Positions 23,056-45,809 of a stretch of DNA of 64,000 nucleotides are shown here, in pieces. Below the pieces are notes generated by a model, which ran no database searches, was not told the origin of the DNA, and saw only the letters and a list, made by a program, of their open reading frames with translations. A program made the translations under genes and the position numbers. The stretch lies in assembly GCA_963749705.1 (NCBI GenBank), contig CAVVNQ010000004.1:64001-128000 (forward strand). The letters run 5' to 3'. Source of the stretch: an uncultured Chloroflexia bacterium. Lineage in GTDB: Bacteria > Chloroflexota > Limnocylindria > Limnocylindrales > CSP1-4. Each line of letters starts with the position of its first letter. Position 1 is the first letter of the stretch.

Positions 23056-23094
23056 ATTGCATGACTATGCAATGCTCCTGTATACTCATGCTGT
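23056..23094 (+). promoter_or_regulatory. arg operon promoter with two tandem ARG boxes
   Basis: TTGCATGACTATGCAA (23057-23072) and CTGTATACTCATGCTG (23078-23093) at a 21-bp period, overlapping -35 TTGCAT and -10 TATACT (23081-23086). argR is in the operon. Confidence 0.85.
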
Positions 23095-24333: not shown

Positions 24334-24364
24334 CGGCGCCCTTAAACGCTCCGAGGTTCCCTTG

Positions 24365-26523: not shown

Positions 26524-26527
26524 GCCG

Positions 26528-27031
26528 ATGCTCGCCAAGCGGGATCGCCACGCCGCCATCCGCCGCCTCGTGGCGAGCCGTCCCATCGGCAGCCAGGGCG
26601 AGCTCGTCGCCGCGCTCTCCGCGCTCGGGTTCGAGGTCACCCAGGCGACGGTCAGCCGCGACATCGCGGAGCTCGGCCTGGCCAAGGTCATGCGCGGCGA
26701 CCACGCCGCCTACGTCAACCCCGAGGATCTCGCGCCCGCGCAGCGTCCGCCGTCCGACGAGCGGCTGCGCCGGATCCTGGGCGACATCCCGGTCACCGTC
26801 GGGCGCAGCGGCCTGATCCTCGTCCTCACGGGCCAGCCCGGCACCGCCAACGTCATTGCCCAGGCGATCGACGAATCCACCCTCGCCGAGCAGGTCGGTA
26901 CCGTCGCCGGGGACAACACGCTCATCGTCCTGTTCCCCGACGAGCCCGCCCTGGAGCGCTGGCTCGATCGGTTCCAAGCGATCCAGGCGCCGGTGGAGCC
27001 GGCGATCCCCACGGAGGCCATGTCCCGATGA
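26528..27031 (+). CDS. argR: Arginine repressor
   Basis: SQGELV..L...GFEVTQATVSRDIAEL; C-terminal PGTA...GTVAGDNTL. Confidence 0.95.
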   Translation: MLAKRDRHAAIRRLVASRPIGSQGELVAALSALGFEVTQATVSRDIAELGLAKVMRGDHAAYVNPEDLAPAQRPPSDERLRRILGDIPVTVGRSGLILVLTGQPGTANVIAQAIDESTLAEQVGTVAGDNTLIVLFPDEPALERWLDRFQAIQAPVEPAIPTEAMSR

Positions 27032-28323
27032 ACAAGGTCGTGCTTGCCTATTCCGGAGGCCTCGATACCTCCGTCGCCGTCGCCTGGCTCAAGGAACAGT
27101 ACGGCGTCGAGGTGATCACCCTGACCGTCGACCTCGGTGGAGGCTCGATGCGCGAAGGGGTAGAGCGGCGCGCGATCAAGGCCGGCGCGTCGAAGGCGTA
27201 CGTCGTCGACGCCCGCGAGACGTTCATCCAGCAGTACGCGTGGCGCGCGCTCCAGTCCGGGGCCGTCTACCAGGGCGCCTATCCCCTGGCGACCGCGCTC
27301 GCACGACCCCTGCTCGCGCAGCTCCTGGTCGAGGTTGCCCAGAAAGAGGGTGCCGACGCCGTCGCCCACGGGTGCACCGGCAAGGGCAACGACCAGGTTC
27401 GCTTCGACATCGCGGTCCACGCGCTCGACCCCGGGCTCGAGGTGATCGCGCCGATGCGGGTGGGCATGGGCCTGTCGCGCGACCAGGAGATCGACTACGC
27501 GATCGAGCGCGGCATCGAGATCCCGATCACCAAGGCGTCTCCGTACTCGATCGACGTCAACCTGTGGGGGCGCTCGTGCGAGACGGGCGTGCTCGAGGAC
27601 CCGTGGGTGACCCCGCCGCCCGATGCGTACGAGTGGACCGTCGCGCCGGGCGATGCGCCCGACCCGGTCGATCTCGTGATCGGGTTCGAGGGCGGAATCC
27701 CGGTGTCGATCGACGGCCAGCCAATGGGCTCGGTGGAGCTGGTCCAGCGGCTCCACGACGTCGGCGGCGCCCATGGCGTGGGCCGGATCGATCACGTCGA
27801 GGATCGCCTGGTGGGGATCAAGAGCCGCGAGATCTACGAGGCCCCGGCGGCCGTGATCCTGCACACGGCCCATCACGCGCTCGAAGGGCTCGTGCTGTCC
27901 AAGGAGCAGCTGCGGTTCAACCGCCTCGTCGCCGACGAGCTGTCGCAGATCATCTACGACGGGCTGTGGTTCAGCGCCCTGTCGCGCGACCTCCGGACCT
28001 ACGCGCTGTCCTCGCAACGGGTGGTCTCGGGTGACGTGCGGATGCGGCTGGACCACGGGCGGGCGATCGTCGTCGGCCGGCGCTCCCCGCTCAGCCTGTA
28101 CGACAAGAACCTCGCCACCTACGACGAGGGCGACGCCTTCGACCACGCGTCCGCGGTCGGGTTCATCGAGATCTTCGGGCTGCCGCTGCGGGTCGAGGCC
28201 GCGCGCCACGGCGCCGTGGGCAAGCACCACGGCGCGGCGTGGACGTGGACCGAGCCGTTGCTCGAGGGCCTGCCGACCAGCGTCACGGGCGACGCCGTGG
28301 CCGGCGAGACCGGCGGCCGCTGA
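27028..28323 (+). CDS. argG: Argininosuccinate synthase
   Basis: VVLAYSGGLDTS, YPLATALARP, HGCTGKGNDQVRF, YSIDVNLWGRS.E.G.LEDP, GIKSREIYEAP. Confidence 0.97.
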   Translation: MNKVVLAYSGGLDTSVAVAWLKEQYGVEVITLTVDLGGGSMREGVERRAIKAGASKAYVVDARETFIQQYAWRALQSGAVYQGAYPLATALARPLLAQLLVEVAQKEGADAVAHGCTGKGNDQVRFDIAVHALDPGLEVIAPMRVGMGLSRDQEIDYAIERGIEIPITKASPYSIDVNLWGRSCETGVLEDPWVTPPPDAYEWTVAPGDAPDPVDLVIGFEGGIPVSIDGQPMGSVELVQRLHDVGGAHGVGRIDHVEDRLVGIKSREIYEAPAAVILHTAHHALEGLVLSKEQLRFNRLVADELSQIIYDGLWFSALSRDLRTYALSSQRVVSGDVRMRLDHGRAIVVGRRSPLSLYDKNLATYDEGDAFDHASAVGFIEIFGLPLRVEAARHGAVGKHHGAAWTWTEPLLEGLPTSVTGDAVAGETGGR

Positions 28324-29725: not shown

Positions 29726-30835
29726 CTACCCGAGCGAGGTCACCACCAGCGACTCGCGGGCGCGCAGGTGCGCGTAGCGCGGCTTGACGACCTCGCTGAT
29801 CAGGCGCAGCCGCTCGTCGAACGCGACGAACGCGGACTTGAGCGCGTTGATCGTGAGCCATTCCATCTCGCCCAGCCCGATCCCGAACGCGGCGTCCAGC
29901 GCCTGAAACTCGGACGACAGCGAGACCCCGCTCATCAGCCGGTTGTCGGTGTTGACCGTCACCCGGAACCGGAGCCGGCGGAGCAGATCGAACGGGTGCT
30001 CCTCGATCGACGCCGCCGCGCCCGTGTGCACGTTCGAGGTCGGGCACATCTCGAGGGGCACGCGGCGGTCGCGGGCAAATGCCGCCAGCCGGCCCATCGA
30101 GACCGTCCCGTCCTCGTGGACGGTGATGTCGTCGACCATGCGGACGCCGTGCCCCAGTCGCTCGGCGCCGCACAGCTGGAGCGCCTCCCAGATCGACGGC
30201 AGCCCGAACGATTCACCGGCATGGATCGTGATGTGGAAGTTCTCGCGCCGGACGTGCTCGAACGCGTCGAGGTGGCGCGTGGGCCGGTAGCCGGCCTCGG
30301 GCCCGGCGATGTCGAAGCCGACCACACCGGCATCGCGCCACCTCACCGCCAGCTCCGCGATCTCCATCGACCGCGCCGCCTGGCGCATGGCCGTGATCAG
30401 CGCGCGGACCACGATCGGCCGCCCGGCGGCCTCCGCGTTCGCCATGCCGACCCGGAAGCCCTCGAGGTTGGCCTCGACGACCTCGTCCAGGGTCAGGCCC
30501 TTCTCGACCGACAGCTCTGGCGCGTACCGGATCTCCGCATACACGACGCCGTCCGCGGCCAGGTCCTCGACGCACTCGGCGGACACGCGGACGATGGCAT
30601 CGCGATCCTGGAGCACGCCGATCGTGTGCTGGAAGGTCTCGAGGTACAGCTCCAGCGACTTGCGGTCGGCGCCGCGGCGGAACCACGCCCCCAGCGCCTC
30701 CACGTCCTGCGTCGGCAGGTCGCGGTAGCCGTACTCGCGGGCGAGATCCACGATCGTCGCGGGGCGAAGACCGCCGTCGAGGTGGTCGTGGAGCAGCGCC
30801 TTGGGCGCCTCGCGGATGGTGTCGAGCGTGAGCAT
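29726..30835 (-). CDS. add: Adenosine deaminase
   Basis: [59 protein letters not shown]. Confidence 0.95.
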
Positions 30836-30962
30836 GGCGGCCTCCGGACGTTCGAGCGATCGTAGCGCGGCCGCAGGCAACCGGTAGGGCCGACGGAACC
30901 GGGTCCGGCGGCCGGACGGACGCCGGTGCGAGTCGGCACCGCCATCGGCCGCGAGCCGGGGA

Positions 30963-31007
30963 CATCGGTCATTTGCCCGATGCGTCATCTGGCTCCGGTC
31001 GTACACT
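30963..31007 (+). promoter_or_regulatory. 20-bp palindrome plus -10 box upstream of STAND-LuxR copy 1
   Basis: CATCGGT-CATTTG-CCCGATG (30963-30982), 19-nt gap, TACACT (31002-31007). Confidence 0.65.
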
Positions 31008-31016
31008 CTGCAAACC

Positions 31017-33947
31017 ATGAGCCAGGTGCGTCCCCTGCTGAGCCCGATCCTGGTCGGTCGCGACGACCTGCTTGAGCTTGCGGAGCGCCGGCTCGCGGAG
31101 GCAGCCGATGGCCATGGTCAGCTGCTGCTCCTGGCCGGCGAGGCGGGCATCGGCAAGACCCGGTTGCTGGCGGCCATCCTGCGCAAGGCGGGCGGCGCGG
31201 GCTTCCGGATCTCGAAGGGCGATCTCGCCCCGCAGGACCGGCAGGTACCGCTGGCATCGATCCTCGACCTCGCCCGGACCATGCGCCGGCTGCCCGAGTT
31301 CGGCACGCTCGGCGACGACCTGCTGGAGATCCGCGGCGGGCAGGGCGGCGACAACCTCGGCTCGCGGCGGCTGCTCGTCCGCGACATCGCCGAACGGATC
31401 ATCACATCCGTCGAGGCGCCCACCGTCCTGGTGTTCGATGACCTCCAGTGGGCCGACGAGATCAGCCTCGAGGTGATCGGCGAGCTGGCGCGCATGGGCC
31501 GCGGCATGCCGCTCCTGCTCGTGGGCGCGTACCGTGCCGACGAGCTCCCGGCTGGTTCGTATCACCGTGAGTGGCGCGCCCGCCTGCTCAGCCAGCGACT
31601 GGCCGAGGAGGCACGGCTGAGCCCAATGACCTACGAACAGACGGCGCTGGTCACGACGCTCATCCTGGGCACCGGCCTGCCGGCGCCCCGCGAGGTGGTC
31701 AAGGCGGTGTTCGAGCGGACGGACGGGATCCCGCTCCACATCGAGGAGCTCCTCGGCGCGCTCAGCGACGACGCCCGCCAGGATGGCCGTGCCATCCGCG
31801 AGGCCGTGGTCCCGGACACGATCGAGGACGCGATCCTCGCCCGCGCCGGACGACTGTCGCCGGCGGCGCGCGAGGTCGCGCGGGCCGGCGCCGTGATCGG
31901 GCGCTGCTTCGTCCCGGAGGTCCTGGCGGGCGTCCTGGACCGGCCGCTGCATGAGCTCGACGCGCCCCTCGCCGAGCTCGTCGCCAGCTCGTTCCTGTAT
32001 CCCTTCGACTTCCTCGACCGTGGCTATTACGACTTCCGCCACCAGCTGCTGCGCGACGCCCTGTACGAGAGCGTGCCGGCCGCCGACCTGCGACGGATGC
32101 ACGCGCGGGCCGGGGAGTTCGGCGCGCAGCTTGCGGGCGCCTCGGAGGTCCATGCATCCGTCCACTTCGAGCGAGCCGGCCTCAGGGCGCAGGCGTTCCG
32201 CGCCGCCCTCGCCGGCGCGCGCGCGGCCGGAGCGATGACGAGCCGGCGCGAGTCATTCGAGCTGTACGCCAGGGCCGCGGCGAACATCCCCGAGGATCTC
32301 CCGGCCCTCGAGCGCGCCGAGCTGTACGACGGCTACTTCGAGGCGGCCGCCGCGGTTGATGACGTCGCTGTGATGGTCGAGGCCGCCAGGCTGGCGCGCC
32401 GCTGGTATGTCGAGGCCGGCCTGCCGGCCGGCGCGGCGGCTGCGCTGCTCAACGAGGCGGGCGTCGCGCGCCGGGACGTCCGGCCCGCGTCGGATCGCCT
32501 GCGACTGCTCGACCAGGCCGAATCGGAGCTCCGCGAGCTGCCGGAATCGGCCGAGCGGGCGTCGCTCATGTCCGACCTCCGCCTGTTCCAGGCCCTCGTC
32601 AGCCTTGACCGGGTCCAGCTCGACGAGGCCGCCTCGTTGATCGATGAGGCGCGATCGCTGTGGCTCGCGTCGGGGAACACCGACACGCGCGGCATCGACT
32701 TCATCGCCGCGAGCGTGGACGTGCTGGCGGGGCAGGTCGACACCGGGCTCGCGACCATGCTCCGGATCGCGCGCGAGGCGCGCGACCTGCGCATGGAGAG
32801 CACCGGTGTGACGGCGTACCGGTGGGCGGCCGCCGTCGCGATCCGGGTGATGGACTATCCGAGCGCGGAGGTCGGGCTTCGGGAGGGCCTGCGCTACGCG
32901 GACGAGATCGAGCAGTCGTACTGTCGCCACGTGCTCGCGGCCACGTCGGCGCACGTTGCCTGGGCGCAGGGGCGATGGGACGATACGATCCCGGCCGCCG
33001 AGATCGAGATCGTCGAACCCGGCAGCCGCCGCGGCACGCTGGGCTCGCGTGACGCGCTCGGCTTCGTCGCGTTCGGTCGGGGGCAGGTGGATCGCGCCCG
33101 CGGCCTGTTCAACGCCTCGCTCGAGATCGGGCGCGCGACCGGCGAGGTCGAGCTGATCATGCCCGCGCTGTGGGGCATGGCCGAGACGGCGCTGGTGTCG
33201 GGCGAGCCGCAGGTCGCCATCGAGCGCTGCAGCGAGGCGCTGGAGCTGGCCGCCGCGACCGGCGAGCGGGCGCTGCTGATCCCGTTCCTGGTCACCGGCG
33301 TGCGAGCGCACCTCGCCGCTCGCCGACCCGAGGCCGCCGAGCGCTGGTCCGACCAGGTGCGGCCGATGCTCGCCGGATGGGGGCGGCGCGCGCAACCCGC
33401 CATCGACAACGCTGAGGGGTTGATCCGCCTTGCGGCGGGATCGACCGTGGCCGCCCGCACCGCGCTCGAGGCCGCGGTCGACGGCTGGGACGCCCTGGCC
33501 CGGATCTGGGAAGCGACGTGGGCCCGCCTCGACCTCGCTGCCTGCCTCCTGCGGGCCAACCGCCAGGCGGAGGCGATCCCGCTCATGCGCGACATCAAGG
33601 CGCTCGCCGAGCGCCTTGACAGCCCGCCGCTGCTCGCCCGGGCCGCGGAGCTGACCGACATCGCGCGCGGACGCGGCGGGGAGGAGGAACCGTGGCGGCC
33701 GCTGACGGCCCGGGAGTACGAGATCGCCCGGAGCGTCGCTGATGGCCTCACCAATGGCGAGATCGCGGGCCGGCTGGGCCTGTCGCCCAAGACCGTCAGC
33801 GCCCACGTCGAGCACATCCTGACCAAGCTCGGTGCCAGCCGGCGCTCCGAGATCGCCGCGTGGACCGTCGCGATCCGACCGGCGGCTGCCAGCGCCGCGG
33901 CACCGGCCACGTCGGTGACCGCGGCGGCAATCGGCGCCCGTCGCTGA
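31017..33947 (+). CDS. STAND-class ATPase / helical-repeat / LuxR-HTH regulator (MalT/LAL-like), copy 1
   Basis: LVGRDD, Walker A GEAGIGKT, Walker [33 protein letters not shown]-terminal LTAREYEIA...[27 protein letters not shown]. Confidence 0.93.
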
Positions 33948-33983
33948 CTCTCTGTCCGGCGGCAGGATCCCGCGGGCATGGAA

Positions 33984-34020
33984 CGGCCCCGGTCGCCCGC
34001 GACGGGAACGACCGGGGCCG
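33984..34020. terminator. GC-rich hairpin between convergent genes
   Basis: CGGCCCCGGTCG (33984-33995) pairs with CGACCGGGGCCG (34009-34020); no U-tract. Confidence 0.5.
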
Positions 34021-34040
34021 GGGTGCCGGCGAAGTTGCGA

Positions 34041-34382
34041 CTACCCCTCGAAGGTGCTCAGGTTCGGATTGCAGGCGATGCCGGGGTTGAGCCCGATCAA
34101 CGTGAGCTGATCGCGGACCGCCTTGGGGATCTGGCCCCACGACTGGGCGTGACCCGGATCTCCCTTGGTTGCGACGGCCTTGAGCGTGGAGTCACTGTCA
34201 TCGGTGTACCACTGGAGGTCCTCCTGGCCCGAATAGGCGCAGTCGGATCGACCGTGGACATCCTTCAGCTGGCCGTTGCCGGTGATCTCGCCGGCCATCG
34301 CGGTGCCGGCAACCATGCTGAGGGCAAGGGCGGCGGTCGCGGCGGCGATGCCGAGCCTCGATGCGGTTCGGGTGTGCGTCAT
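34041..34382 (-). CDS. Small secreted hypothetical protein (113 aa, two Cys)
   Basis: SD GGAGG; signal peptide MTHTRTASRLGIAAATAALALSMVAGTAMA followed by GEITGNG; mature part contains SDCAYSG...QSWGQ...PGIACNP. Confidence 0.8.
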   Translation of the reverse strand: MTHTRTASRLGIAAATAALALSMVAGTAMAGEITGNGQLKDVHGRSDCAYSGQEDLQWYTDDSDSTLKAVATKGDPGHAQSWGQIPKAVRDQLTLIGLNPGIACNPNLSTFEG

Positions 34383-34429
34383 TGAAATCGATCCTCCGTT
34401 GTCGTGGGAACTGTGTCGCGATCCAGGGT

Positions 34430-34678
34430 TCAGACCTCGACGCTGAGCTCGTAGACCTCGGGCGTGGGATGCCCCGCCTGCTCGTGGATCCGCATCACCG
34501 CCTCCTTCGAGGGGCCCGACGCGAGGCAGAACACCTTGCCCGCCTCGGGATCGAGCCACGCATGCTCGAAGTGCACGCCCTCCGTGTCCTCGATCGCGAG
34601 GTCGCGGTCGTGGGCCTCCTGGAGCTGCTCGCCGGTGACGCCGAAGAACCCTTCGTGCACATCCATGAACTTCGCCAT
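34430..34678 (-). CDS. DUF4242 / SCO4226-like small His-rich (putative nickel-binding) protein
   Basis: MAKFMDVH...EAHDRDL..E..EGVHF...W.DPEAGKVFCL..GPSKEAV.RIH..AGHP..EVYE; SD GGAGGT. Confidence 0.88.
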   Translation of the reverse strand: MAKFMDVHEGFFGVTGEQLQEAHDRDLAIEDTEGVHFEHAWLDPEAGKVFCLASGPSKEAVMRIHEQAGHPTPEVYELSVEV

Positions 34679-34746
34679 TTGCCACCTCCGGAATGTGGGA
34701 CGCCGGTCGTACCCTGCCCCGAGACTGGCTGATCGCGGCGAGTCCG

Positions 34747-34792
34747 TCATCGGTCGATCTACCGATGAGGGGTCGCGAGATGCACGTAGACT
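34747..34792 (+). promoter_or_regulatory. Palindrome plus -10 box upstream of STAND-LuxR copy 2, in the region divergent from DUF4242
   Basis: TCATCGGT-CGATCT-ACCGATGA (34747-34768). TAGACT at 34787-34792, 19 nt after the 20-bp core. Confidence 0.7.
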
Positions 34793-34802
34793 CCACGGCG
34801 GG

Positions 34803-37775
34803 ATGGCGACGAACGAGCTCGTGATCTGCCCGGTCCTCGTGGGTCGCGACGACCTGCTGGCGCTGGCGGGCCGACGCCTGCGTGAAGCTGCCGCGTCGCG
34901 CGGCGGGTTGCTGTGCCTCGCCGGTGAAGCCGGGATCGGCAAGACGCGGCTGGCCGGGGCAATCGAGCGACGCGCCGTGTCGGCGGGCTTCGTGATCGCG
35001 AGAGGGATCGCCTACCCGCGTGACCTCGAGGTGGCCGGTGGCGTGTTCATCGACCTTGCGCGCTCCCTCGGCCGGATCCCCGGGCTCGACCGCGTCGGTG
35101 CGGCGCTGGGCGAGCTGCTCGGTGGGCCTGGCGACAGGGCGCCGACGGCGGGCGACGCGCATCGGCGGCGGCGCATCCTCATGCTGGACGTGGTCGATCT
35201 GCTCGCGGGTCTGCCGGCGCGGACGCCGGTGATGCTCACGCTCGAGGATCTCCACTGGGCGGACGACCTGACGCTGGAGATCGTCGGGGCGCTCGCGCGA
35301 CGGCTGCCGGAGCTGCCGCTCATGGTCCTCGCGACATACCGGAGCGACGAGCTGTACCCCCGCGTCCCGATGCGCGAGTGGCGCGCGCGGCTGCTGGCGG
35401 GGCGCCTCGCGGAGGAGACGCGCGTCAGCCGCCTGGATCGCGACGGGACGGCGTCCATGGCGACCCTGATCCTCGGAACCGGGCTGCCCGCGCCGCGAGA
35501 CCTGGTGATGTCGATCCACGAGCGCTCCGACGGCGTGCCACTGCACGTCGAGGAGCTCCTCGCGGTGGTGCGGGCGGCGGGTCCGGAAGCGATCGCGTCG
35601 ACGGTGGTCCCGGAAACGCTCGACGAGGCCATCCTGCTGCGAGCGGGGCGACTCTCCGTCCGGGCGCGCCGGGTGGCCGATGCCGCCGCCGTCATCGGCC
35701 GGTCGTTCGACGTGTCCCTCCTGGCGGGCGTCGTCGACCGCTCCGCGGACCAGCTGTCCGCACCGCTCCGGGAGCTCGAGACCGCGTACTTCGTGGCCGA
35801 GACGGCCGATGCGGGTCGCCTCGACTTTCGGCACGCGCTGATCCGCGACGCGCTGTACCGGCAGGTGCCGGCGCATGTGCGCCGTCGCCTGCACGGCCGC
35901 GTCGCCGACGCCGCGGCGACGGATCCACGGTTCGATGCCGCCTTCCGGTCGACCCACCTGGAGGAAGCCGGCCGCAGCGCCGAGGCCTTCGCGGCCGCGC
36001 TCGAGGGCGGGCGCCGCGCGGCCGCCATGTCCGCCCATCGCGAGGCGCTCGAGCTGCTCGAACGGGCGCGGCGGACCGCACCACCCGAGCTGCAGCCCCA
36101 GGACCGCGCTTCGATGCTCGCCGCGCTCGCCGACGAGGCGGCCGCCACCGACGCCAACGACAACGCCGACCGGAGCTACGAGGAGGCGATCGAGCTGCTG
36201 CGCCGCGTCGGTGATCTCCGGGCGGCATCGGCGCTCGTGCCGCGCCAGGTTGCCGTCCGACACCTGCTGGGCGACGACCTGCAGGCCCGGTCCGAGCGAC
36301 TGGAGGCCGCGGTCCGCGCACTGGAGGCGGTCCCCGACGACACCGCGACACGAGCCGTGCGCGCCAGGCTGCTGTCGGGGCTGGCGGCAGCCAACATGCT
36401 CGATCGCCGGCTCGAGACCGCGATCGCGTACGGCGAGGCGGGCCGTGAGCTGGCCATCGAGACCGGCGAGCAGGGCATCGAGCTGGACGTTGCCGCGACC
36501 GTCGGCTCGTGCCTGGTGTTCGCGGGGCGCATGGACGAGGGCTGGGCGCTGCTCGAGCGCGCGGTCGCCGAGGCCCGATCGGCGCACCGCGAGTCGGAGG
36601 CTGCCCGCGCGTACCGGATGATCGGCTCGTGCGCCTCGGTGCTCGTCGAGTACGGGCGCGCCGAACGCTGGCTCGGCGAGGGCATCGAGCTGGCAGAGCG
36701 CGTCGAGCTCTGGAACCATCGCCATTACATGGCCGCGCACCTCGGTCACGTACGCTGGGCGAGTGGCGCCTGGCCCGACGCCGAGCGGCTCGCGGCACAT
36801 GCCCTTGCCGACGGCCGGGGCGGCATCACGACCCGGATCACCGCGCTCCACGTGCTCGGCTACGTCAATGTCGGCCGCGGGCATCTCGACGATGCGCAAC
36901 GGATCCTCACGGAGGCGCTCGAGCTGGGCGAGCAGATGGCCGAGCTCCAGCGGATCTCGCCCGCCGTGTGGGGCCTGGCCGAGGCGGCGCTGCTCGCCGG
37001 CGATCCGCATCGCGCCATCGCCTGGTGCGAGAAGGGCGAAGCGGCCTCCGACGCCGTGGCCGACGCTGCCTACCTGTTCCCGTTCCTCGTCACGGGCGCG
37101 CGAGCGCATCTGGCGGCCGGCGATCCGGCCGCGGCGGCTGCCTGGACCACCCGGGTGTCCGCCGCCGTGGCCCATCGCGGGATCCCCGGCACCATGCCGG
37201 CGATCGACCATGCGCGCGGCCTGGTGGAGCTCGCAAACGGCGCCACGGGACGCGCACGTGCGTCGCTGGACATCGCGCGCCGCCAGTGGCACGAGCATCA
37301 ACGGACGTGGGAGGGATCCTGGGCGGCGCTCGACCTCGCGGTCGCGCTCGCGCGCTCCAACCTGCCGGGCGAGGCGCGGCGGATCGCGCTCGAGGCGGAG
37401 GGGATCGCCGACCAGCTGGACTCGGCGCCGCTGCGGCGGGCCGCAGCGGACCTGCTGGCCAGGCTGCGGTCACGCACCGGTCCGGTGCCTCCGTGGGCGC
37501 CGCTCACGGCACGCGAGTACACGGTCGCCCGGCTCATCGCGGCGGGGTCGACCAACAGCGAGATCGCGCTGGAGCTGGGCATCGCCCCGCGCACGGCCAC
37601 GTCGCACGTGGAGCACATCCTTGCCAAACTGGGGTTCACACGGCGGGCGGAGGTGGCGGCGTGGGTCGGCCGCACGGCGGCCGCACCGTCGATGCCCAGC
37701 GAGAACGCCGGTGGCGGTGCGTCGATGTCGCTCGTCGACACGCCACGCCGCCGGGCGACAGGGAGCGATCGATGA
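34803..37775 (+). CDS. STAND-class ATPase / helical-repeat / LuxR-HTH regulator, copy 2
   Basis: [70 protein letters not shown]...STNSEIA.ELGIAPRTATSHVEHILAKLG. Confidence 0.93.
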   Translation: MATNELVICPVLVGRDDLLALAGRRLREAAASRGGLLCLAGEAGIGKTRLAGAIERRAVSAGFVIARGIAYPRDLEVAGGVFIDLARSLGRIPGLDRVGAALGELLGGPGDRAPTAGDAHRRRRILMLDVVDLLAGLPARTPVMLTLEDLHWADDLTLEIVGALARRLPELPLMVLATYRSDELYPRVPMREWRARLLAGRLAEETRVSRLDRDGTASMATLILGTGLPAPRDLVMSIHERSDGVPLHVEELLAVVRAAGPEAIASTVVPETLDEAILLRAGRLSVRARRVADAAAVIGRSFDVSLLAGVVDRSADQLSAPLRELETAYFVAETADAGRLDFRHALIRDALYRQVPAHVRRRLHGRVADAAATDPRFDAAFRSTHLEEAGRSAEAFAAALEGGRRAAAMSAHREALELLERARRTAPPELQPQDRASMLAALADEAAATDANDNADRSYEEAIELLRRVGDLRAASALVPRQVAVRHLLGDDLQARSERLEAAVRALEAVPDDTATRAVRARLLSGLAAANMLDRRLETAIAYGEAGRELAIETGEQGIELDVAATVGSCLVFAGRMDEGWALLERAVAEARSAHRESEAARAYRMIGSCASVLVEYGRAERWLGEGIELAERVELWNHRHYMAAHLGHVRWASGAWPDAERLAAHALADGRGGITTRITALHVLGYVNVGRGHLDDAQRILTEALELGEQMAELQRISPAVWGLAEAALLAGDPHRAIAWCEKGEAASDAVADAAYLFPFLVTGARAHLAAGDPAAAAAWTTRVSAAVAHRGIPGTMPAIDHARGLVELANGATGRARASLDIARRQWHEHQRTWEGSWAALDLAVALARSNLPGEARRIALEAEGIADQLDSAPLRRAAADLLARLRSRTGPVPPWAPLTAREYTVARLIAAGSTNSEIALELGIAPRTATSHVEHILAKLGFTRRAEVAAWVGRTAAAPSMPSENAGGGASMSLVDTPRRRATGSDR

Positions 37776-38674
37776 CGAGCCAATGGACCGGATCCTCGGG
37801 CGGCGTGGACTGGGTGCTGCGGCTCGACCGCGACCGGCTGCTGCCGGGGCGCCTCGTGGGCGGGCATGTGACGGTGGCCGCGCGGCGCGCGGTGGAGGCT
37901 CGCGGGCTGGTCGTGACGCTGCGCGGCGAGGAGCACTGGAAGTACCACGTCACGACGACGGACAGCGAGGGCCACAGCCACACGGAGACCCGCACCGGGC
38001 ACCAGGACCAGCCGCGCGTCCCGGTGCTCGCGGTGGCGCCCATCCGGCTCGCCGCGGGGGAGACCCGCGAGCTCGACATCCAGATCCCCGTCCCGGGTCT
38101 CGGCCCGGCCACGCTCGAAGCCGACGTCGCGGGCGTCTCCTGGGCCGTCGAGGCCAAGCTGGACATCGAGGGCGGACGCGACAGCTCGATCGAGGTGCCG
38201 GTGCGCATCCTCCAGCCGACCGCGCTGCTGCGCGCCGGCGTGGTCCACGTGGGCGAGTTCGCCCTGTTCGAGGCAGCGGACGCGCAGGCAGGCGGCGTCA
38301 CCGGCTCCATTCGCATCGACCCCGTCCCCCTGGTCCCGGGGGAGCCGTTCCGCGGCCAGCTCTCGCTGCGGCCTTCGTCGCCGATGCGACTCCAGGAGAT
38401 CCGGATGGAGCTCCGGGTGAGGGTCGAATCCACCGTCTCCGGCGGGTTCGACCAGACGCTCGTGCCCTGGTCGGCCGTCGTGGCACCCGCGATGGAGCTG
38501 GCGTCGGACCAGGTGGTCGAGGTCGCGGGGACCGTGCCGGATGTTGCCCTGCCCACGATCGAGCTGCCCCACGGGCGCGCCGCCGCCGAGCTGCACGTGA
38601 TCCTCGCGCGTGCCTGGGCGCGCGATCCACACCTCGTGCGGGACCTGGCGATCGCGACCACACGGGAGCTCTGA
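37772..38674 (+). CDS. Hypothetical protein with two beta-sandwich halves, arrestin/SpoOM-like
   Basis: ATGA-coupled to the regulator. Halves show parallel patterns: PGRLVGGHVTV..VVTLRGEE..PATL..VSWAVEAKLD and PGEPFRGQLSL..IRMELR..LPTI..AELHVIL. Confidence 0.65.
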   Translation: MTSQWTGSSGGVDWVLRLDRDRLLPGRLVGGHVTVAARRAVEARGLVVTLRGEEHWKYHVTTTDSEGHSHTETRTGHQDQPRVPVLAVAPIRLAAGETRELDIQIPVPGLGPATLEADVAGVSWAVEAKLDIEGGRDSSIEVPVRILQPTALLRAGVVHVGEFALFEAADAQAGGVTGSIRIDPVPLVPGEPFRGQLSLRPSSPMRLQEIRMELRVRVESTVSGGFDQTLVPWSAVVAPAMELASDQVVEVAGTVPDVALPTIELPHGRAAAELHVILARAWARDPHLVRDLAIATTREL

Positions 38675-38717
38675 CGCCGGCGCCCGCTCCCCCGCGGATG
38701 CGGCGGACGGGTGCCCG

Positions 38718-40136
38718 TCAGCCCTCGAGCCGGGACCTCGCCTCCGCCAGCGCCGCGGCAACGCGCGCCGGCGCCGTCCCACCGGTGACATCCGCGCTCG
38801 CCAGGGCTCCTTCGATCGTCGTCGCGGCGCGGAGCTGGGCCACGATCCCCTTCTGGCGACGGAGCCCCCGCGCGACCGGATCGTCGCTGCCGTCGAGCGC
38901 CGACCTGAACGCCTCGTCGGGCAGTGCCGCGAGCGTCGCAACTCCCTCGGCCTCGGCGCCCCCGACGAGCCCCCCGACGATGTGGTGGGCGGCACGGAAC
39001 GGGACCCCGCGCATGACCAGCGCGTCGGCAAGCGCGGTCGCCGTCGTGTAGCCCTCCTCCGCCGCGGCCTGCATTCGGGCCCGGTCGATGACGAGCGTCT
39101 CGATCAGCCCGGCCATCACCCCCAGCGACGCGTCGAGCGTCGACACGGCGGCGAACAGCGGCGGCTTGTCCTCCTGGAGGTCGCGCTGGTAGGCCAGCGG
39201 CAGCCCCTTGAGCAGCGTGAGCATGCCCGCCAGGGCGCCGATGACGCCGGCGGCGCGCCCGCGGACGAGCTCCGCCGGATCCGGGTTCTTCTTGTTGGGC
39301 ATCATCGACGACCCGGTCGAGAACGCGTCGGCGACGTGGACGAACCCGAACCGGGGGTTGGACCACCAGGTGATCTCCTCGGCCAGGCGGCTGAGGTGGA
39401 CCATCGCGAGGGCCACCGCTGCCAGCACCTCGACCACGAAGTCACGGTCGGACACGGCGTCGAGCGAGTTGGCCGTCACGCCGTCGAAGCCGAGCTCCGC
39501 GGCGGTGGTCTCGCGGTCGAGCGGGTATCCCGCGCCGGCCAGCGCACCGGCTCCCAGGGGCGAGACGTTGAGCCGGCGGCGGGCATCGAGGAGGCGGCCC
39601 CGGTCACGCTCGAGCATCTCGACGTAGGCCAGCAGGTGATGCGCGAGGAGCACCGGCTGGGCGGGCTGGATGTGGGTCGTGCCGGGCAGCACGGCGTCGC
39701 CCTCGCGCTCGGCGAGGTCCACCAGCGCCTGCTCCAGGCCGACGATCCCCGCGACGAGCCGGTCCACGGCACGCCGGGTCCACAGCCGGAGGTCGGTGGC
39801 GACCTGGTCGTTGCGCGAGCGTCCGGTATGCAGCTTGCCGCCCACGCTGCCGACGCGCTCGGTGAGCAGCGTCTCCAGGTTCATGTGGACGTCCTCGAGG
39901 GCCGGATCCCAGGCGATGGCTCCAGCTTCGACGTCCTCGCGCAGCCCGACCAGCCCGCGCTCGAGGACCGCGACCTCGTCCTCGGTCAGCAGCCCGGCGC
40001 GCCCGAGCCCGCGGACGTGCGCGATCGAGCCGGCGATGTCGTCCAGCGCGAGCACCGCATCGATCTCGATCGAGCGCGTGAACTCCGCCATCCGCGCGTC
40101 CGGCCCCTCGCCGAACCGACCGCCCCACAACTGCAT
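38718..40136 (-). CDS. argH: Argininosuccinate lyase
   Basis: MQLWGGRF, EDVHMNLE, KLHTGRSRNDQVATD, PGTTHIQPAQP, PLGAGALAG, STGSSMMPNKKNPD, KGLPLAYQRDLQEDK. Confidence 0.96.
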   Translation of the reverse strand: MQLWGGRFGEGPDARMAEFTRSIEIDAVLALDDIAGSIAHVRGLGRAGLLTEDEVAVLERGLVGLREDVEAGAIAWDPALEDVHMNLETLLTERVGSVGGKLHTGRSRNDQVATDLRLWTRRAVDRLVAGIVGLEQALVDLAEREGDAVLPGTTHIQPAQPVLLAHHLLAYVEMLERDRGRLLDARRRLNVSPLGAGALAGAGYPLDRETTAAELGFDGVTANSLDAVSDRDFVVEVLAAVALAMVHLSRLAEEITWWSNPRFGFVHVADAFSTGSSMMPNKKNPDPAELVRGRAAGVIGALAGMLTLLKGLPLAYQRDLQEDKPPLFAAVSTLDASLGVMAGLIETLVIDRARMQAAAEEGYTTATALADALVMRGVPFRAAHHIVGGLVGGAEAEGVATLAALPDEAFRSALDGSDDPVARGLRRQKGIVAQLRAATTIEGALASADVTGGTAPARVAAALAEARSRLEG

Positions 40137-40270
40137 GAAGCCTCCGTGCCGCGTAGGGAGCCATCGTACCGGGTGTCCATGGCGGGATCGGGCGGAACGC
40201 GGTCGCCGCGTGCCGCGGCCGGAGCGGTGCGACCGGGGCCACCGCGCGGTGGCCGCGGCCGATGGCGGCA

Positions 40271-40324
40271 AGGCTCAGCGCGCGGCCGACGGCGCGCGGC
40301 GAGGCTCAGCGCGCGGCCGACGGC
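40271..40324. repeat. 23-bp direct duplication of the galT 3' end
   Basis: AGGCTCAGCGCGCGGCCGACGGC at 40271-40293 and 40302-40324. Confidence 0.8.
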
Positions 40325-41364
40325 ACCACGGCGCGCAGGCGCTCGGCGGCCTCCTCGGCCGTCAGGTCCCGCTGCGGCTCGGCGAGCAGCTCGTAGCCGA
40401 CCATGAACTTGCGCACCGTGGCCCGCAGCAGCGGCGGGTAGAAGTGCGCGTGCACCTGCCAGTGCCCGGTCTCCGCGCTGCCGAACGGCGCCTGGTGCCA
40501 GCCCATCGAGTACGGGAACTGGCGCCCGAACAGCGCGTCGTAGCGGCGGGTGAGGTCCCGCAGCGCCGCCGCCAGCGCGTCGCGGTCCTCGTCGCCGACG
40601 TCGGCCAGCCGGGATGCCGGGAAGCGCGGGATGAGCAGCGTCTCGAACGGCCACGCGGCCCAGAACGGGACGACGGCCAGCCACGCCCCGTGGGCCGCGA
40701 CGACGCGCGGTCCGTCACGCTCGGCAGCCGCGTAGTCCGCGAGCAGGCGTCGTCCGTGGTCGGCGAGGTATCGCGACTGGGACTCGTCCTCGCGGGTCGC
40801 CTCCACCGGAAGCGCGTCGCCCGACCAGATCTGGCCGTGCGGGTGCGGGTTGGACGCGCCCATCGCCTCGCCCCGGTTCTCGAACACCTGGACCCACCGG
40901 TAGTCACGACCGAGCTCGGTCGTCTGCTCCGCCCAGACGTCGATGACGCCCCGGATCTCGGCCTCCGACATCCCCGCCAGGGTCAGGTCGTGACGCGGCG
41001 AGAAGCACACGACCCGGCACGTGCCACGCGTGCCCTGGGCACGGAACAGGCCGTCACCCAGGCGCACCGCCGACGTGTCCGGCCGGAGCGCGGCGAAGTC
41101 GTTGGTGAACACGAACGTGCGGTCGTAGGCCGGGTTGACCTCGCCGTTGACGCGGGTGTTGCCCGGACACAGGTAGCACTCCGGGTCGAATGCCGGCCGA
41201 TGCTCGGGCGGCTCCGGCTCCTCGGCGCCCAGCCACGGCCGGAGCGTCCGTCCCGCGGAGACCAGCACCCATTCGCCGGTCAGGGCGTTGAAACGGCGGT
41301 GGGGCTCGTCATCGAGCGCCCCGAGCGCCTCGTCGTCCGGCCTCGCAGCCGGGTCAGTTGGCAC
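40306..41364 (-). CDS. galT: Galactose-1-phosphate uridylyltransferase
   Basis: [68 protein letters not shown]. Confidence 0.96.
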
Positions 41365-42212
41365 GGATCGACACCCCCATGGCCGAAAGCTCGTCGTCCG
41401 CGACCACTACGGCATCGGCTTCCTCCTGGGCGCCTTCGCCGGCATCGACGACGACGACCTCGGGGACCGCATCCCGGAGGATGCCCAGGGCCTCGTCCGT
41501 CCAGCCCACTGTCGGTAACCACGACATCCGCCTGGTCGAGACGCGCGATCGTCGCGATCCCGACGACCCCCCATTTCGCGTGATCCGCGACCACGATGAG
41601 CCGGCGGCTCGCGTCGATCAGCGCCCGGTCCGTCTCGGCCTCGCTCAGGTTGGGACACGTGAACCCGGCATGCGCATCCATCCCGTGGACGCCCATGAAC
41701 GCGAGATCGAGGTGGACGGTACGAATCTGGGCGACGGCGAACGGCCCGACCAGCGCCTCCGAGCGGGTGCGTACGCCGCCGGTGAGGATCACCGTCTGGT
41801 CGCGCCGCCCGGTGCGGTGCAGCACGTCCGCGACCCGGATGGAGTTGGTCACGATGGTCACGCCCGGCACCTCGGCGACCCTGCGCGCGAGCACGTGGGT
41901 GGTGGTCCCGGCCGAGATCGCGATCGACATGCCCGGCTCGACCAGCTCCACCGCGGCGGCGGCGATCGCCGACTTCTCTGCCTGCTGCAGCGAGGTCTTC
42001 GCGGTGAAGCCGGGCTCGTACGAGGCCAGCCCGGACAGCGCCGTCGCACCGCCGTGCACCTTCTCGAGCAGACCCTGCTCGTGGAGCACCTCGAGATCGC
42101 GACGAACCGTCATGTCGGAGACGTCGAGCTCCCGCGCGAGCTCGACCACGCGGACCGCGCCCGACGCGCGGACGCGATCGAGGATGAGTGCCTGACGCTG
42201 GCGGGCGAGCAT
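41354..42212 (-). CDS. DeoR/GlpR family regulator with a +1 frameshift near 41497
   Basis: [11 protein letters not shown]...[11 protein letters not shown]...[27 protein letters not shown]. Removing one G restores [18 protein letters not shown] and a stop at 41354 overlapping the galT start. Confidence 0.9.
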
Positions 42213-42293
42213 CGCTCCGGCGTTTCCTCGAGGTCGTGTCGATCGCGCTGGGCCCGACGCTCCGGCCCGCGATCGACCGACCGGCGCATTATC

Positions 42294-42393
42294 ATCTTGA
42301 TCCCGGAAAGCACCTAAGTCAACGCACTCGCACAAAAAAAGTTGTTCGAATCCGCGCGAGTCTCTTGACATTGCGCAATCTGGTCGCAACAAT
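42294..42393. promoter_or_regulatory. AT-rich divergent promoter region of the galactoside locus
   Basis: + strand TTGACA (42365)-N17-AACAAT with palindrome ATTGCGCAAT (42370-42379); minus strand TTGACT (42322-42317); A7 tract between them. Confidence 0.6.
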
Positions 42394-42451
42394 CCCACTT
42401 GTCGGCCCGGCCCGCATGTGCATCGCGGAAGGTCGCGGAGGAGGTTTCAGC

Positions 42452-43822
42452 ATGGCTGATCACGACGGCCACCTTTCCGTCACGCGCCGCCAGGTGCTCA
42501 AGGGAGGCGCTGCTGTCGCGGCGCTGGGCGGAGTCTCCGCCTTCCTCGCGGCCTGCGGCTCCGCGGGCGCGACCACGGCGCCCCCGGCCTCGTCAACCGC
42601 ACCGGCTGCGTCTGCTGCCCCGCCCGAGTCCATGGCCCCGGTCACGGGCAGCCTGACGTTCGGGTCGAACTACTCCGACCAGGTCCCCAAGGACGCGATG
42701 CAGGCCGTCGTCGACGCCTTCACCGCGAAGACGAGCATCACCGTCAACGTCAACACGGTCGAGCACGGCAAGTTCCAGGACACGATCAACGCGTACCTGC
42801 AGGCGACACCGGACGATGCGTTCACCTGGTTCGCCGGCTACCGGATGCAGTTCTTCGCCGCCCAGGGCCTGGCCCTCGATATCAGCGACGTCTGGAGTCA
42901 GGTCGGCTCGAACTTCACCGACCCCATCAAGGCCGCCTCGACCGGCGCCGACGGCAAGCAGTACTTCGTCCCGTTCTACAACTACCCGTGGGGCGTCGCG
43001 TACCGGAAGAGCTTCTTCACCGAGAAGGGCTACACGGTCCCCAAGACACTCAGCGAGTTCACGGCGCTTGGCGACAAGATGAAGGCCGATGGGCTCATCC
43101 CGCTCGCGTTCGGCGATAAGGACGGCTGGCCCGCGATGGGCACGTTCGACATCCTCAACATGCGGATGAACGGCTACGACTACCACATCGGGCTCATGGC
43201 CGGCAAGGAGAAGTGGACGGACGCGAAGACCAAGGCCGTGTTCCAGAAGTGGGCGGAGCTGCTCCCCTACTTCGATCCGCAACCGTTGGGCAAGACCTGG
43301 CAGGAGGCCTGCCAGGACATGCTCAGCAATAAGGCCGGCATGTACTTCCTCGGCACCTTCCTGGGCGAGCAGGCAACCGACCCGGCTGTCCATGACGATC
43401 TGGACATGTTCCCGTTCCCGGTCTTCGGGAACGAGTACGACAGCGAGATGGCGATCGACGCCCCGATCGACGGGTTCATGGTGGCCGCGAAGGCGGTCAA
43501 CGTGGACCAGGCGAAGGCGTTCCTGGAGTACCTGGCGACCGGCGAGGCCGAGGGCATCTTCCTCAAGTCGAGCCCCAACAACGTGTTTGTCGGCAAGGAC
43601 GGCGACACGAGCACCTACACGGCGTGGCAGACGACGGCGGCTGGGATCCTCGCCGGATCCAACAAGCTCGCCCAGTTCATGGACCGGGACACCAGGCCGG
43701 ACTTCGCGGGCGCGAACGGGATGCAGGGGTTCATCCAGAACTTCCTGGGCGACCCGTCGCAGGACCTGGACAAGTTCCTGTCCGGCATCCAGGACTTCTA
43801 CGACAGCCTGCCGCCGCAGTGA
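42452..43822 (+). CDS. Carbohydrate ABC transporter substrate-binding lipoprotein, Tat signal
   Basis: VTRRQVLKGG twin-Arg, FLAAC lipobox, DAFTWFAGYRM, DGKQYFVP...WGVAYRKS; SD GGAGGAGG. Confidence 0.92.
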   Translation: MADHDGHLSVTRRQVLKGGAAVAALGGVSAFLAACGSAGATTAPPASSTAPAASAAPPESMAPVTGSLTFGSNYSDQVPKDAMQAVVDAFTAKTSITVNVNTVEHGKFQDTINAYLQATPDDAFTWFAGYRMQFFAAQGLALDISDVWSQVGSNFTDPIKAASTGADGKQYFVPFYNYPWGVAYRKSFFTEKGYTVPKTLSEFTALGDKMKADGLIPLAFGDKDGWPAMGTFDILNMRMNGYDYHIGLMAGKEKWTDAKTKAVFQKWAELLPYFDPQPLGKTWQEACQDMLSNKAGMYFLGTFLGEQATDPAVHDDLDMFPFPVFGNEYDSEMAIDAPIDGFMVAAKAVNVDQAKAFLEYLATGEAEGIFLKSSPNNVFVGKDGDTSTYTAWQTTAAGILAGSNKLAQFMDRDTRPDFAGANGMQGFIQNFLGDPSQDLDKFLSGIQDFYDSLPPQ

Positions 43823-43853
43823 TCACCAGCTGAGGCCAACGAACGAGCGCCCC

Positions 43854-45763: not shown

Positions 45764-45809
45764 CATGCGACCCCCGGCCACCTGGGCCGGGTCGAGGAGG
45801 AACCGCACG

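Follow-up and report, generated by a model that had tools for sequence, protein, structure and literature searches.

LAL regulators are numerous and poorly understood, and to our knowledge the ligand and the DNA site have been established for almost none of them. The boxes recognized by MalT are asymmetric repeats. The lux box is an inverted repeat of 20 bp whose centre falls just upstream of the -35 position in a promoter that depends on an activator. The defining features of LAL regulators are an N-terminal NTPase with a Walker-A motif and a C-terminal LuxR-type HTH, and polyene clusters are named as loci that hold more than one LAL gene (PMC3282765). SCO4226 of Streptomyces coelicolor (PDB 4oi3/4oi6) is the founding protein of the DUF4242 family; its Ni-1 site is formed by Asp43, Ser46 and His76 (PMC4186839). 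SCO4226 adjoins phoU/phoRP and is reported to be PhoP-controlled (PMC4991794).

Two LAL paralogues around a DUF4242 gene

In the window, that is, the whole stretch of 64,000 nt that was analysed, which comes from a MAG of the class Limnocylindria (Chloroflexota) and not from an actinobacterium, all five genes of the earlier note hold up at the positions given there; in all five a third-position GC of 0.86–0.94 supports coding. On the plus strand, reg1 (31017–33947, 976 aa) and reg2 (34803–37775, 990 aa) enclose two minus-strand genes: sec (34041–34382), which encodes a 113-aa protein with two Cys and a signal peptide ending in AMA, followed by GE, and the DUF4242 gene (34430–34678, 82 aa; PF14026, 1.1e-21). 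Accordingly, reg1 is convergent with sec, and reg2 is divergent from DUF4242. A Spo0M/arrestin-like ORF (37772–38674, plus strand, 300 aa) follows, its ATG overlapping the TGA of reg2 as ATGA. The flanks hold argC/J/B/R/G, a GAF histidine kinase, adenosine deaminase (ADA), argH and galT. As the earlier note had remarked, the module itself contains no biosynthetic cluster. A scan for intrinsic terminators in 30800–38800 returned none. Parts of the stretch were found in five soil-metagenome DNA runs from two studies, with no RNA run listed.

Both regulators have the size (~800–1100 aa) and the architecture of LAL proteins, with an N-terminal AAA_16 NTPase containing GEAGIGKT (1.8e-18 in reg1, 2e-16 in reg2) and a C-terminal LuxR-type HTH matched by GerE (3.7e-16 and 6.4e-14); Pfam also detects TPR_12 in reg1. 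The residues G44, G46 and K47 and the Walker-B residue D142 are invariant in 34 sequences, and neither of the two clades described below varies at the recognition-helix residues T926, H930, E932 and H933. The two proteins are 42% identical across their full length (418/997, BLASTP), and all six motifs that the earlier note had quoted are present in this alignment. In the LAL tree, the reg2 clade (8 rows, SH-aLRT 96) is split from the reg1 superclade (31 rows, SH-aLRT 100), so that by this phylogeny reg1 and reg2 are members of two old paralogue clades. The tree rules out a recent tandem duplication. The genome also encodes many further GerE proteins.

Among congeners the interval between ADA and argH is variable: reg1, reg2, sec, DUF4242 and the Spo0M-like gene are each present or absent, and there is one regulator only, from either clade. 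The window joins two arrangements that congeners have singly, namely a reg1 that converges with sec-DUF4242, and a reg2 that diverges from DUF4242 and has the Spo0M-like gene after it.

A palindrome and a conserved layout of predicted promoters

About 36–55 nt upstream of both reg1 and reg2 there is a 20-bp palindrome, CATCGGTC-N4-GACCGATG. The first predicted operator (30963–30982, CATCGGTCATTTGCCCGATG, 1 mismatch) is in the divergent spacer between adenosine deaminase and reg1, 36–54 nt before the reg1 ATG. The second (34748–34767, CATCGGTCGATCTACCGATG, 1 mismatch) is common to the divergent reg2 and DUF4242 genes, at 36–55 nt from the reg2 ATG and 70–89 nt from the DUF4242 ATG; neither operator is assigned to a strand. 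Only four sites with at most one mismatch occur in the 3.6-Mb genome, all of them upstream of some gene's predicted start codon, while among 200 shuffled versions of the half-sites the average was 0.06 genomic sites, and 1 of 200 reached four. The remaining two sites precede an azoreductase-like flavoprotein gene and a TasA-like secreted-protein/SipW operon, both unlinked to the locus, and a third LAL paralogue elsewhere in the genome has a palindrome with two mismatches at its 5' end. The description of the module as self-contained does not agree with this distribution. We assign the palindrome to the regulators by association, and infer that they bind it. Given the same predicted operator and the invariant recognition-helix residues, joint action of reg1 and reg2 at one promoter is plausible.

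The arrangement downstream of the palindrome is also conserved. Each of the 37 LAL upstream regions that were aligned has a TA(G/C)ACT-like hexamer 17–22 nt after the palindrome and, after a further 5–14 nt, the start codon; three rows have the variants TACAAT, TACGAT and TACCCT. The predicted -10 boxes of reg1 (TACACT, 31002–31007, plus strand) and reg2 (TAGACT, 34787–34792, plus strand) are each separated from the preceding palindrome by 19 nt, and from the ATG by 9 nt in reg1 and 10 nt in reg2. A consensus scan found no sigma-70 promoters in 30800–38800; the promoter elements given here are read from conservation, from which we infer that TA(G/C)ACT is a promoter element. With the -10 box only 9 nt before the ATG and no Shine-Dalgarno sequence, reg1 is predicted to have an mRNA with little or no leader. 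The geometry of the LAL promoters hints at transcription activation. On the other side of operator 2, the hexamer CAGTCT (34722–34727, minus strand), 20 nt from the palindrome, may serve the DUF4242-sec operon as its -10 box; it is followed by a leader of ~35 nt with GGAGG. In orthologous DUF4242 upstream regions, an nAnnnT hexamer 20–21 nt after the palindrome was seen by eye and is weakly supported.

Association across Limnocylindria

We asked how consistently LAL genes, palindrome and DUF4242 occur together, using 35 genes of the LAL subfamily outside this genome. The palindrome lies 30–60 nt upstream of the start in 32 of them, followed by TA(G/C)ACT and ATG; the exceptions are those of L142, L147 and L160. 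It is found at the same fixed distance before 'solo' LAL genes that have no DUF4242 neighbour. A DUF4242 orthologue adjoins 26 of the 35 genes (18 divergent, 8 convergent) in several genera. The adjacency survives inversions and is seen in a second context, next to aldehyde dehydrogenase, a PALP enzyme and Lgt in family f4. Since many pairs are in one syntenic ADA-argH locus, part of this conservation is inheritance. The palindromes before reg1 and in the reg2/DUF4242 spacer, coupled with the adjacency, favor the earlier suggestion that the regulators and DUF4242-sec form a regulatory unit.

Viewed from the DUF4242 side, the palindrome (up to two mismatches) is upstream of the gene in 17 of 21 orthologue loci, degenerate in two and absent in two; the loci without it (L132, L136) likewise have no LAL neighbour, and L172 and L024 carry it before DUF4242 genes that are unlinked. 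Among the neighbours of this LAL subfamily DUF4242 is the most conserved, and it is the predicted target. In another genus (L175), the TasA-like/SipW target is found again, there with a perfect palindrome.

At the level of genomes, a site with at most one mismatch is present in 19 of 21 LAL-positive and 9 of 39 LAL-negative members of family f1, counts that were cross-read by hand and come from relatives that are not independent. The LAL search scored four candidates per genome, so some LALs were possibly missed in the nine site-bearing f1 genomes. One of them, G184, with no LAL detected among its four scored candidates, has sites that resemble real operators. Of the 201 class genomes, 96 contain a match to the raw pattern, many of these lacking a LAL of this subfamily; by itself, the pattern is therefore not specific. 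In family f4 it matches in 49 of 66 genomes, with a LAL in 11 of 66; in five LAL-less f4 genomes, nine of the ten matches inspected were intragenic.

DUF4242 is present in 156 of the 201 class genomes. A second, distant pair consists of LAL2 (~875 aa) and the paralogue DUF4242b (L133, L134, L135, L149 and L151), and in one Acidobacteriota MAG (L045) a DUF4242 gene adjoins a distant LAL-like gene. A role of DUF4242 as a family-wide LAL partner was rejected, as a LAL is within 1.5 kb in 5 of 29 class loci and a LAL-like gene in 1 of 23 further Chloroflexota loci outside the class.

The DUF4242 protein and nickel

The window's DUF4242 protein passes the cut-offs of both Pfam PF14026 (77.2 bits vs 28.5) and NCBIfam NF033706 (138 vs 125). 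It has the same length as SCO4226 and matches it with an E-value of 5.5e-29 over residues 1–79. However, the Ni-1 ligands Asp43, Ser46 and His76 correspond to Asp, Ala and Tyr, so that Asp43 alone is kept, and His3, His12 and His20 are likewise lost. Tyr76 is nearly invariant in 37 relatives. With two of the three main ligands replaced (Ser46 by Ala, His76 by Tyr), we rejected a reading of this protein as nickel-binding. The label 'SCO4226 family nickel-binding protein' of the NCBI model rests on ligands absent from the window's DUF4242. The genomic context also differs: SCO4226 is located beside phoU/phoRP, the window's DUF4242 beside LAL genes. Complex prediction for reg1 residues 1–890 with DUF4242, run without controls, gave 'no answer' (score 0.00), which speaks neither for nor against binding.

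The secreted and Spo0M-like proteins

The sec gene starts 47 nt downstream of DUF4242 with its own GGAGGA; the short gap and the lack of an operator between the genes predict co-transcription. In the congener L033, where the two genes stand in the reverse order, sec comes with a palindrome of its own. Both Cys residues are invariant among 32 close homologues. Pfam had no match for sec and nothing meaningful for 12 homologues, longer ones included, and an ESM Atlas search returned unnamed clusters only. A first AlphaFold model, based on the 32 close homologues, was poor (pLDDT 49.2); a second, built from 88 diverse rows and restricted to the mature part, had pLDDT 71.5 and pTM 0.46. For the latter, Foldseek found no PDB match at E ≤10, and VIA-align against 48,161 chains none at Z ≥2; such absence of matches to a predicted model does not show a new fold. 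The earlier note had proposed scoring the linkage of sec to STAND-LuxR and DUF4242 genes within 5 kb. Close LAL genes occur in only 11 of 75 sec homologue loci, all syntenic at the arg locus of one genus; of the non-arg loci, 33 have 5 kb or more to either side, and among these there is a distant LAL-like gene in three and DUF4242 in one. The linkage is thus limited to that genus. A DUF4242 gene followed by an exported-protein gene recurs with three unrelated proteins: sec, a 106-aa family and a 180-aa family.

In the Spo0M-like protein, the N-terminal 130 residues match Pfam Spo0M (PF07070; 29.2 bits vs a cut-off of 23), a member of the arrestin-like clan, in part only (profile positions 17–132 of 213). 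Matches to Arrestin_N and Arrestin_C were below their cut-offs, and NCBIfam had no match. The gene is found in 30 of 201 class genomes and is adjacent to LAL or DUF4242 in only five; in the congener G005 it stays in the locus without both. The ATGA coupling to reg2 stands, with an identical junction after the reg2 orthologue of the congener L167; the gene's proposed part in the module is not supported. By its distribution, the gene appears to be an accessory, only loosely attached member.

Interpretation

We think it fairly probable that the locus is a regulon cassette whose LAL genes regulate themselves, widespread in Limnocylindria, and not a self-contained secretion circuit. GerE-domain dimers of reg1 and reg2 would bind the palindrome after the STAND/TPR part has bound ATP and a ligand. 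With TA(G/C)ACT taken as the -10 element and no -35 box, the centre of the palindrome would fall ~41.5 bp before the predicted transcription start, a position from which the bound regulator may act as a class II activator. Each regulator would drive its own nearly leaderless mRNA, giving positive feedback, and from operator 2 the DUF4242-sec operon would be driven in the opposite direction. The same operator would recruit the azoreductase-like flavoprotein gene and the TasA-like/SipW secretion operon elsewhere in the genome. With two regulators that differ in their sensor regions and one operator type, two signals could converge on the same promoters.

There is a smaller chance that DUF4242 is a dedicated small partner of the LAL, a feedback modulator or co-sensor docking on the STAND/TPR part, and that the window is a two-input switch whose paralogues compete or co-assemble at a bidirectional operator. 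We count in its favor the adjacency kept through repeated inversions, the LAL2-DUF4242b pair and the Acidobacteriota pair; MalT, for comparison, is a docking platform for MalY, MalK and Aes. If so, the 'nickel-binding protein' annotation would be misleading for these members.

Somewhat less probable still is that the palindrome is the operator of another transcription factor, whose targets would be the LALs, DUF4242, sec and the unlinked operons alike, while the LALs regulate something else. The sites in the nine f1 genomes in which no LAL was detected among the four candidates scored, the operator-like ones of G184 included, would fit this view, as would the abundance of other GerE proteins and the fact that the binder is assigned by association. 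On the other hand, the fixed distance to the start, 'solo' genes included, and the enrichment of sites in LAL-positive f1 genomes tie the palindrome to the LALs themselves, and a 20-bp inverted repeat is the classic type of target of LuxR/GerE dimers.

In the earlier proposal, the regulators, perhaps joined as a reg1/reg2 hetero-oligomer, switch on a metal-binding modulator and an exported protein, here taken as a nickel binder and a signal, and the arrestin-like protein belongs to the same self-contained sense-and-secrete circuit. This now seems doubtful. The common operator and recognition helix, the recurrence of DUF4242 with exported-protein genes and the ATGA coupling kept in one congener speak for it, but the predicted regulon extends beyond the locus, sec homologues lose the linkage outside a single genus, the Spo0M-like gene usually lies elsewhere and persists in G005 without LAL or DUF4242, the Ni-1 ligands are not kept, and congeners get by with a single regulator from one clade or the other.

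That common genes came to lie together between adenosine deaminase and argH by chance or by inheritance alone, without any functional connection, is already disfavored and very improbable: the interval does vary among congeners and DUF4242 is common in the class, but neither accounts for the common operator or for an adjacency kept through inversions and in the f4 context. We give almost no credence to an anti-phage STAND (Avs-like) defence locus, likewise already disfavored, since, although AAA_16 is combined with TPR and BrxC_BrxD gives a weak hit that stays under the cut-off, PADLOC gave weak matches to the HTH region only and matched no defence family, the C-terminus is a LuxR HTH and not an effector, and the genes carry a predicted autoregulatory operator.

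Relation to known systems

Read as a regulon cassette, the locus provides a first regulatory context for DUF4242, and a LAL subfamily in which the predicted operator is sharply defined, the promoter layout fixed and the conserved target tiny. These features would make it a compact system for studying the STAND-LuxR mechanism and promoter sharing by two paralogues; as the hosts are uncultured soil Chloroflexota, any test must be heterologous. In their length of ~980 aa, Walker-A NTPase, TPR/MalT-like sensor region, LuxR HTH and occurrence as more than one LAL per locus, reg1 and reg2 are like known LAL regulators. They differ in that no biosynthetic or catabolic cluster is adjacent, the conserved neighbour being a DUF4242 gene, and in their host, an uncultured Chloroflexota lineage. 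Whereas MalT boxes are asymmetric, the predicted target here is a perfect 20-bp palindrome. The locus is like LuxR at the lux box in this respect, with a 20-bp inverted repeat at a comparable position and positive feedback, here predicted; yet LuxR is a small acyl-homoserine-lactone receptor, while reg1 and reg2 are STAND NTPases with TPR repeats. Judged from sequence, the locus thus appears to encode an ordinary kind of regulator with unusually clear predicted wiring.

Gene content of the regulator locus

Sequence comparison delineates the locus as a new, well-delimited regulator of the large ATP-binding LuxR type (LAL), for which an operator, a promoter layout and a core regulon can be predicted. 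Gene calling by third-position GC (window G+C, 72%; source genome, a 3.6-Mb MAG that is 88% complete) bore out all five genes proposed in the earlier note. The LAL genes reg1 (31017–33947) and reg2 (34803–37775) lie on the plus strand, and both products have AAA_16, TPR and GerE domains. They are alike over their whole length (42% identity), and every motif quoted for them earlier is present in the alignment. Between them, on the minus strand, are the gene for an 82-aa DUF4242 protein (34430–34678; PF14026, E = 1.1e-21) and, 47 nt beyond it, the gene for sec (34041–34382), a 113-aa two-Cys protein that has a signal peptide and matched no family in the profile search. An arrestin-like gene (37772–38674, plus strand) begins at an ATGA overlap with the reg2 stop codon; its product scores above the Pfam cut-off for Spo0M and below it for Arrestin_N and Arrestin_C, and is here called Spo0M-like.

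The locus is flanked by argC/J/B/R/G, a GAF histidine kinase gene, an adenosine deaminase gene, argH and galT. The real start of the deaminase gene, beside reg1, is near 30835. The arginine genes come in two parts (23065–28323 and 38718–40271): argC, argJ, argB, argR and argG are transcribed rightward; 10 kb away, beyond the variable regulator locus, argH is on the opposite strand. The stretch from argB to argR showed neither argD nor argF. A galactoside-use cluster (40306–51118) comprises galT and genes for a solute-binding protein, an ABC permease, a GH2 beta-galactosidase and a GH36 alpha-galactosidase.

A shared palindrome and its predicted promoter context

When the 260 nt preceding each DUF4242 orthologue were aligned, a 20-bp palindrome, CATCGGTC-N4-GACCGATG, emerged about 70–110 nt before the start codon. 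With at most two mismatches it is found at 17 of 21 loci; it is degenerate in two and absent from two, and these last two lack the LAL neighbour as well. The window's genome has only four sites with at most one mismatch, against a mean of 0.06 for shuffled half-sites, which reached four in 1 of 200 shuffles. Of the four, one precedes reg1 (30963–30982) and one lies between DUF4242 and reg2 (34748–34767). The others are elsewhere in the genome, one 63–82 nt before an azoreductase-like flavodoxin-fold gene and one about 80 nt before a secreted-protein gene that is followed by a SipW-type signal peptidase gene. Judging from the resemblance of its signal-anchor sequence, we call this secreted protein TasA-like; it has no match in Pfam or NCBIfam. 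The same secreted-protein/SipW target recurs in another genus (L175) behind a perfect palindrome. Since one predicted operator precedes both of these distant targets, the idea of a self-contained module is not supported. In another genome (L179 of G204, 2070–3240), a 1-mismatch palindrome lies about 85 nt before a Lipoprotein_15 'secreted repeat' gene, which encodes a further exported protein.

A search of 201 Limnocylindria genomes with reg1 as query (E up to 1e-80) placed the LAL subfamily in 34 genomes and 13 of 43 genera; such class-wide tallies include a few unpublished genomes, on which the locus-level claims do not depend. Thirty-five LAL genes from outside the window's genome were mapped by script, with one unpublished genome omitted. 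The palindrome (up to two mismatches) lies 30–60 nt upstream of the start in 32 of the 35, including 'solo' genes without a nearby DUF4242 gene. Moreover, a DUF4242 orthologue adjoins 26 of them, in 18 cases divergently and in 8 convergently. The pair occupies the adenosine deaminase–argH context in several genera of family f1 and another context (aldehyde dehydrogenase, PALP enzyme, Lgt) in family f4. The common palindrome and this adjacency uphold the earlier view of the regulators and the DUF4242–sec pair as one unit.

The LAL upstream regions are uniform in layout: in 37 of 37, the palindrome is followed after 17–22 nt (mostly 19) by a TA(G/C)ACT-like hexamer and, 5–14 nt further, by the start codon. 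No Shine-Dalgarno sequence was seen in the 5–14 nt between hexamer and start codon of these 37 regions, and a scan for consensus promoters gave no match. Should the hexamer be a -10 box, the palindrome would be centred near -41.5 and stand in for the -35 box, as in class II activator geometry, and the LAL mRNA would have little or no leader.

Candidate binder of the palindrome

We infer that the LALs themselves bind the palindrome. The site has a fixed position before LAL genes, the recognition-helix residues are invariant in both the reg1 and reg2 clades, and a 20-bp inverted repeat fits a GerE dimer. The distribution of sites across family f1 points the same way: sites with at most one mismatch occur in 19 of 21 LAL-positive versus 9 of 39 LAL-negative genomes, a comparison made by hand among related genomes that are not independent. 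Against this assignment, the bare pattern matches 96 of 201 class genomes (reversed control, 2 of 201), and in family f4 it matches 49 of 66 genomes, of which family only 11 of 66 have a LAL of this subfamily. In five LAL-less f4 genomes, 9 of 10 inspected matches fall inside ORFs, most with G+C-rich spacers; on this small sample, such matches are probably not operators. Also against the LALs as binder, operator-like sites precede DUF4242 in G184, an f1 genome scored as LAL-negative; the search for LALs covered only four candidates per genome and may have missed some.

Three f4 genomes (L189, L190, L191) carry an identical CATCGGTCCTGCGACCGATG inside an orthologous ORF of about 450–490 aa; this conserved intragenic sequence mimics the operator.

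Two old paralogues in a variable locus

A maximum-likelihood LAL tree of 42 rows was built with IQ-TREE (quick search, LG+G4), taking three distant LAL2 proteins as the outgroup. In it, reg2 belongs to an 8-row clade that spans families f1, f3 and f4 (SH-aLRT 96) and reg1 to a superclade of 31 rows (SH-aLRT 100). This split rules out a recent tandem duplication and marks the two as old paralogues. The same palindrome type precedes genes of both clades, and the sensor regions of reg1 and reg2 diverge far more than their HTH regions. Divergent sensors combined with a common predicted operator are consistent with two inputs acting on the same promoters; the two regulators may also form hetero-oligomers. 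A third paralogue in the genome (49% identity to reg1) falls in the 'solo' subclade; it has a different context, no DUF4242 or sec gene nearby, and a palindrome with two mismatches at its 5' end.

The usual gene order in the genus is adenosine deaminase (leftward), reg1 (rightward), then sec, DUF4242 and argH (leftward). One congener (L138) has reg1 and DUF4242 and lacks sec. Two others (L022, L167) have a LAL of the reg2 type alone, transcribed away from DUF4242; in one of these two the Spo0M-like gene comes next and overlaps it by ATGA, as in the window. A further congener (L173, L174) has neither LAL nor DUF4242 and keeps the Spo0M-like gene between deaminase and argH. By gene order, the window is the union of the reg1-convergent and reg2-divergent arrangements of its congeners.

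L173 and L174, two contigs of G005, carry a near-identical argH/Spo0M-like/adenosine deaminase stretch, which may reflect duplication or an assembly artefact. In L182 (G100) a 1-mismatch palindrome lies at about 2045 between adenosine deaminase and argH, an interval that showed neither LAL nor DUF4242; a cassette since lost may have left the palindrome behind. In another genus (L145 of G108 and L148 of G147, about 2905–2999), adenosine deaminase and LAL are divergent and only about 90 nt apart. The palindrome sits halfway between them, at about 39 nt from where the deaminase gene starts, and in that genus the regulon may include the deaminase.

Genus-level companions: sec and the Spo0M-like gene

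The protein sec belongs to a genuine family of fair size, with 1169 matches in a collection of 5.8 billion proteins, and 166 clusters at 50% identity. Its two Cys are invariant in 32 close homologues and present in 90% or more of 88 diverse rows. Its linkage was checked within 5 kb of a sec homologue at 75 genome loci. A LAL-like gene was present at 15, of which 11 represent the same syntenic arg locus (54–79% identity to reg1, versus 27–30% at the other four). DUF4242 was present at 13, namely the 11 arg loci, L024 and L026. Many other loci are on short contigs; among the 33 non-arg loci that extend 5 kb or more in both directions, three have a distant LAL-like gene and one has DUF4242. The palindrome is absent from all stand-alone sec loci, and sec itself occurs in 11 of 36 congeners of the window genome. 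As close LAL genes are near sec solely at the 11 syntenic loci, the general linkage to STAND-LuxR genes proposed earlier shrinks to one genus. Within that genus sec does belong to the regulator unit, because it follows DUF4242 without an intervening operator and has its own palindrome copy in the one species where the order is swapped (L033).

A general linkage of the arrestin-like gene fares no better: it is present in 30 of the 201 class genomes and adjoins LAL or DUF4242 only in the window, G239, G008, G011 and G228 (the last a fragment at a contig end). We regard it as an accessory gene, a passenger of reg2 at the level of the genus.

DUF4242 and its pairings

A LAL lies within 1.5 kb of DUF4242 at 5 of 29 class loci and 1 of 23 further Chloroflexota loci, which rules out LAL pairing as a family-wide property of DUF4242. 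A second, distant pairing joins LAL2 (about 875 aa) to a paralogue, DUF4242b. LAL2 genes are found at L133 (7171–9789), L134 (10163–12808), L135 (796–3429), L149 and L151; their products are 26–33% identical to reg1/reg2, and the adjoining DUF4242b is 33–40% identical to the window's DUF4242. Behind the pair, L133 and L134 each encode an exported protein of about 180 aa. This family, with no Pfam match and a C-terminal motif close to H.W.W..NPSG.F..WNP..SC, is encoded behind DUF4242 in L133 (10125–10667), L134 (9157–9810), L131 (about 10080–10650) and L177 (2370–2921); one case lies behind the palindrome, and one member has a C-terminal membrane anchor.

Comparison with known systems

The window's DUF4242 aligns to SCO4226 (PDB 4oi3; E = 5.5e-29) and passes the NCBI model 'SCO4226 family nickel-binding protein'. 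SCO4226, whose gene lies beside phoU/phoRP in Streptomyces (PMC4991794), is reported to bind nickel with low affinity (Kd 10 µM) and to form its Ni-1 site from Asp43, Ser46 and His76 (PMC4186839). The passages returned by a full-text literature search did not link SCO4226/DUF4242 to LuxR or LAL regulators. Unlike SCO4226, the window's protein has Asp, Ala and Tyr at the Ni-1 positions, so that only Asp43 is kept, and His3, His12 and His20 are lost too; Tyr76 is nearly invariant among 37 relatives. The nickel-binding role suggested earlier is thus unsupported. Residues that are invariant include D6, H8, H23, D26, W41, C51 and H65.

The position of the lux box matches the class II-type placement near -41.5, and the LAL palindrome would have the same geometry if the hexamer is the -10 box.
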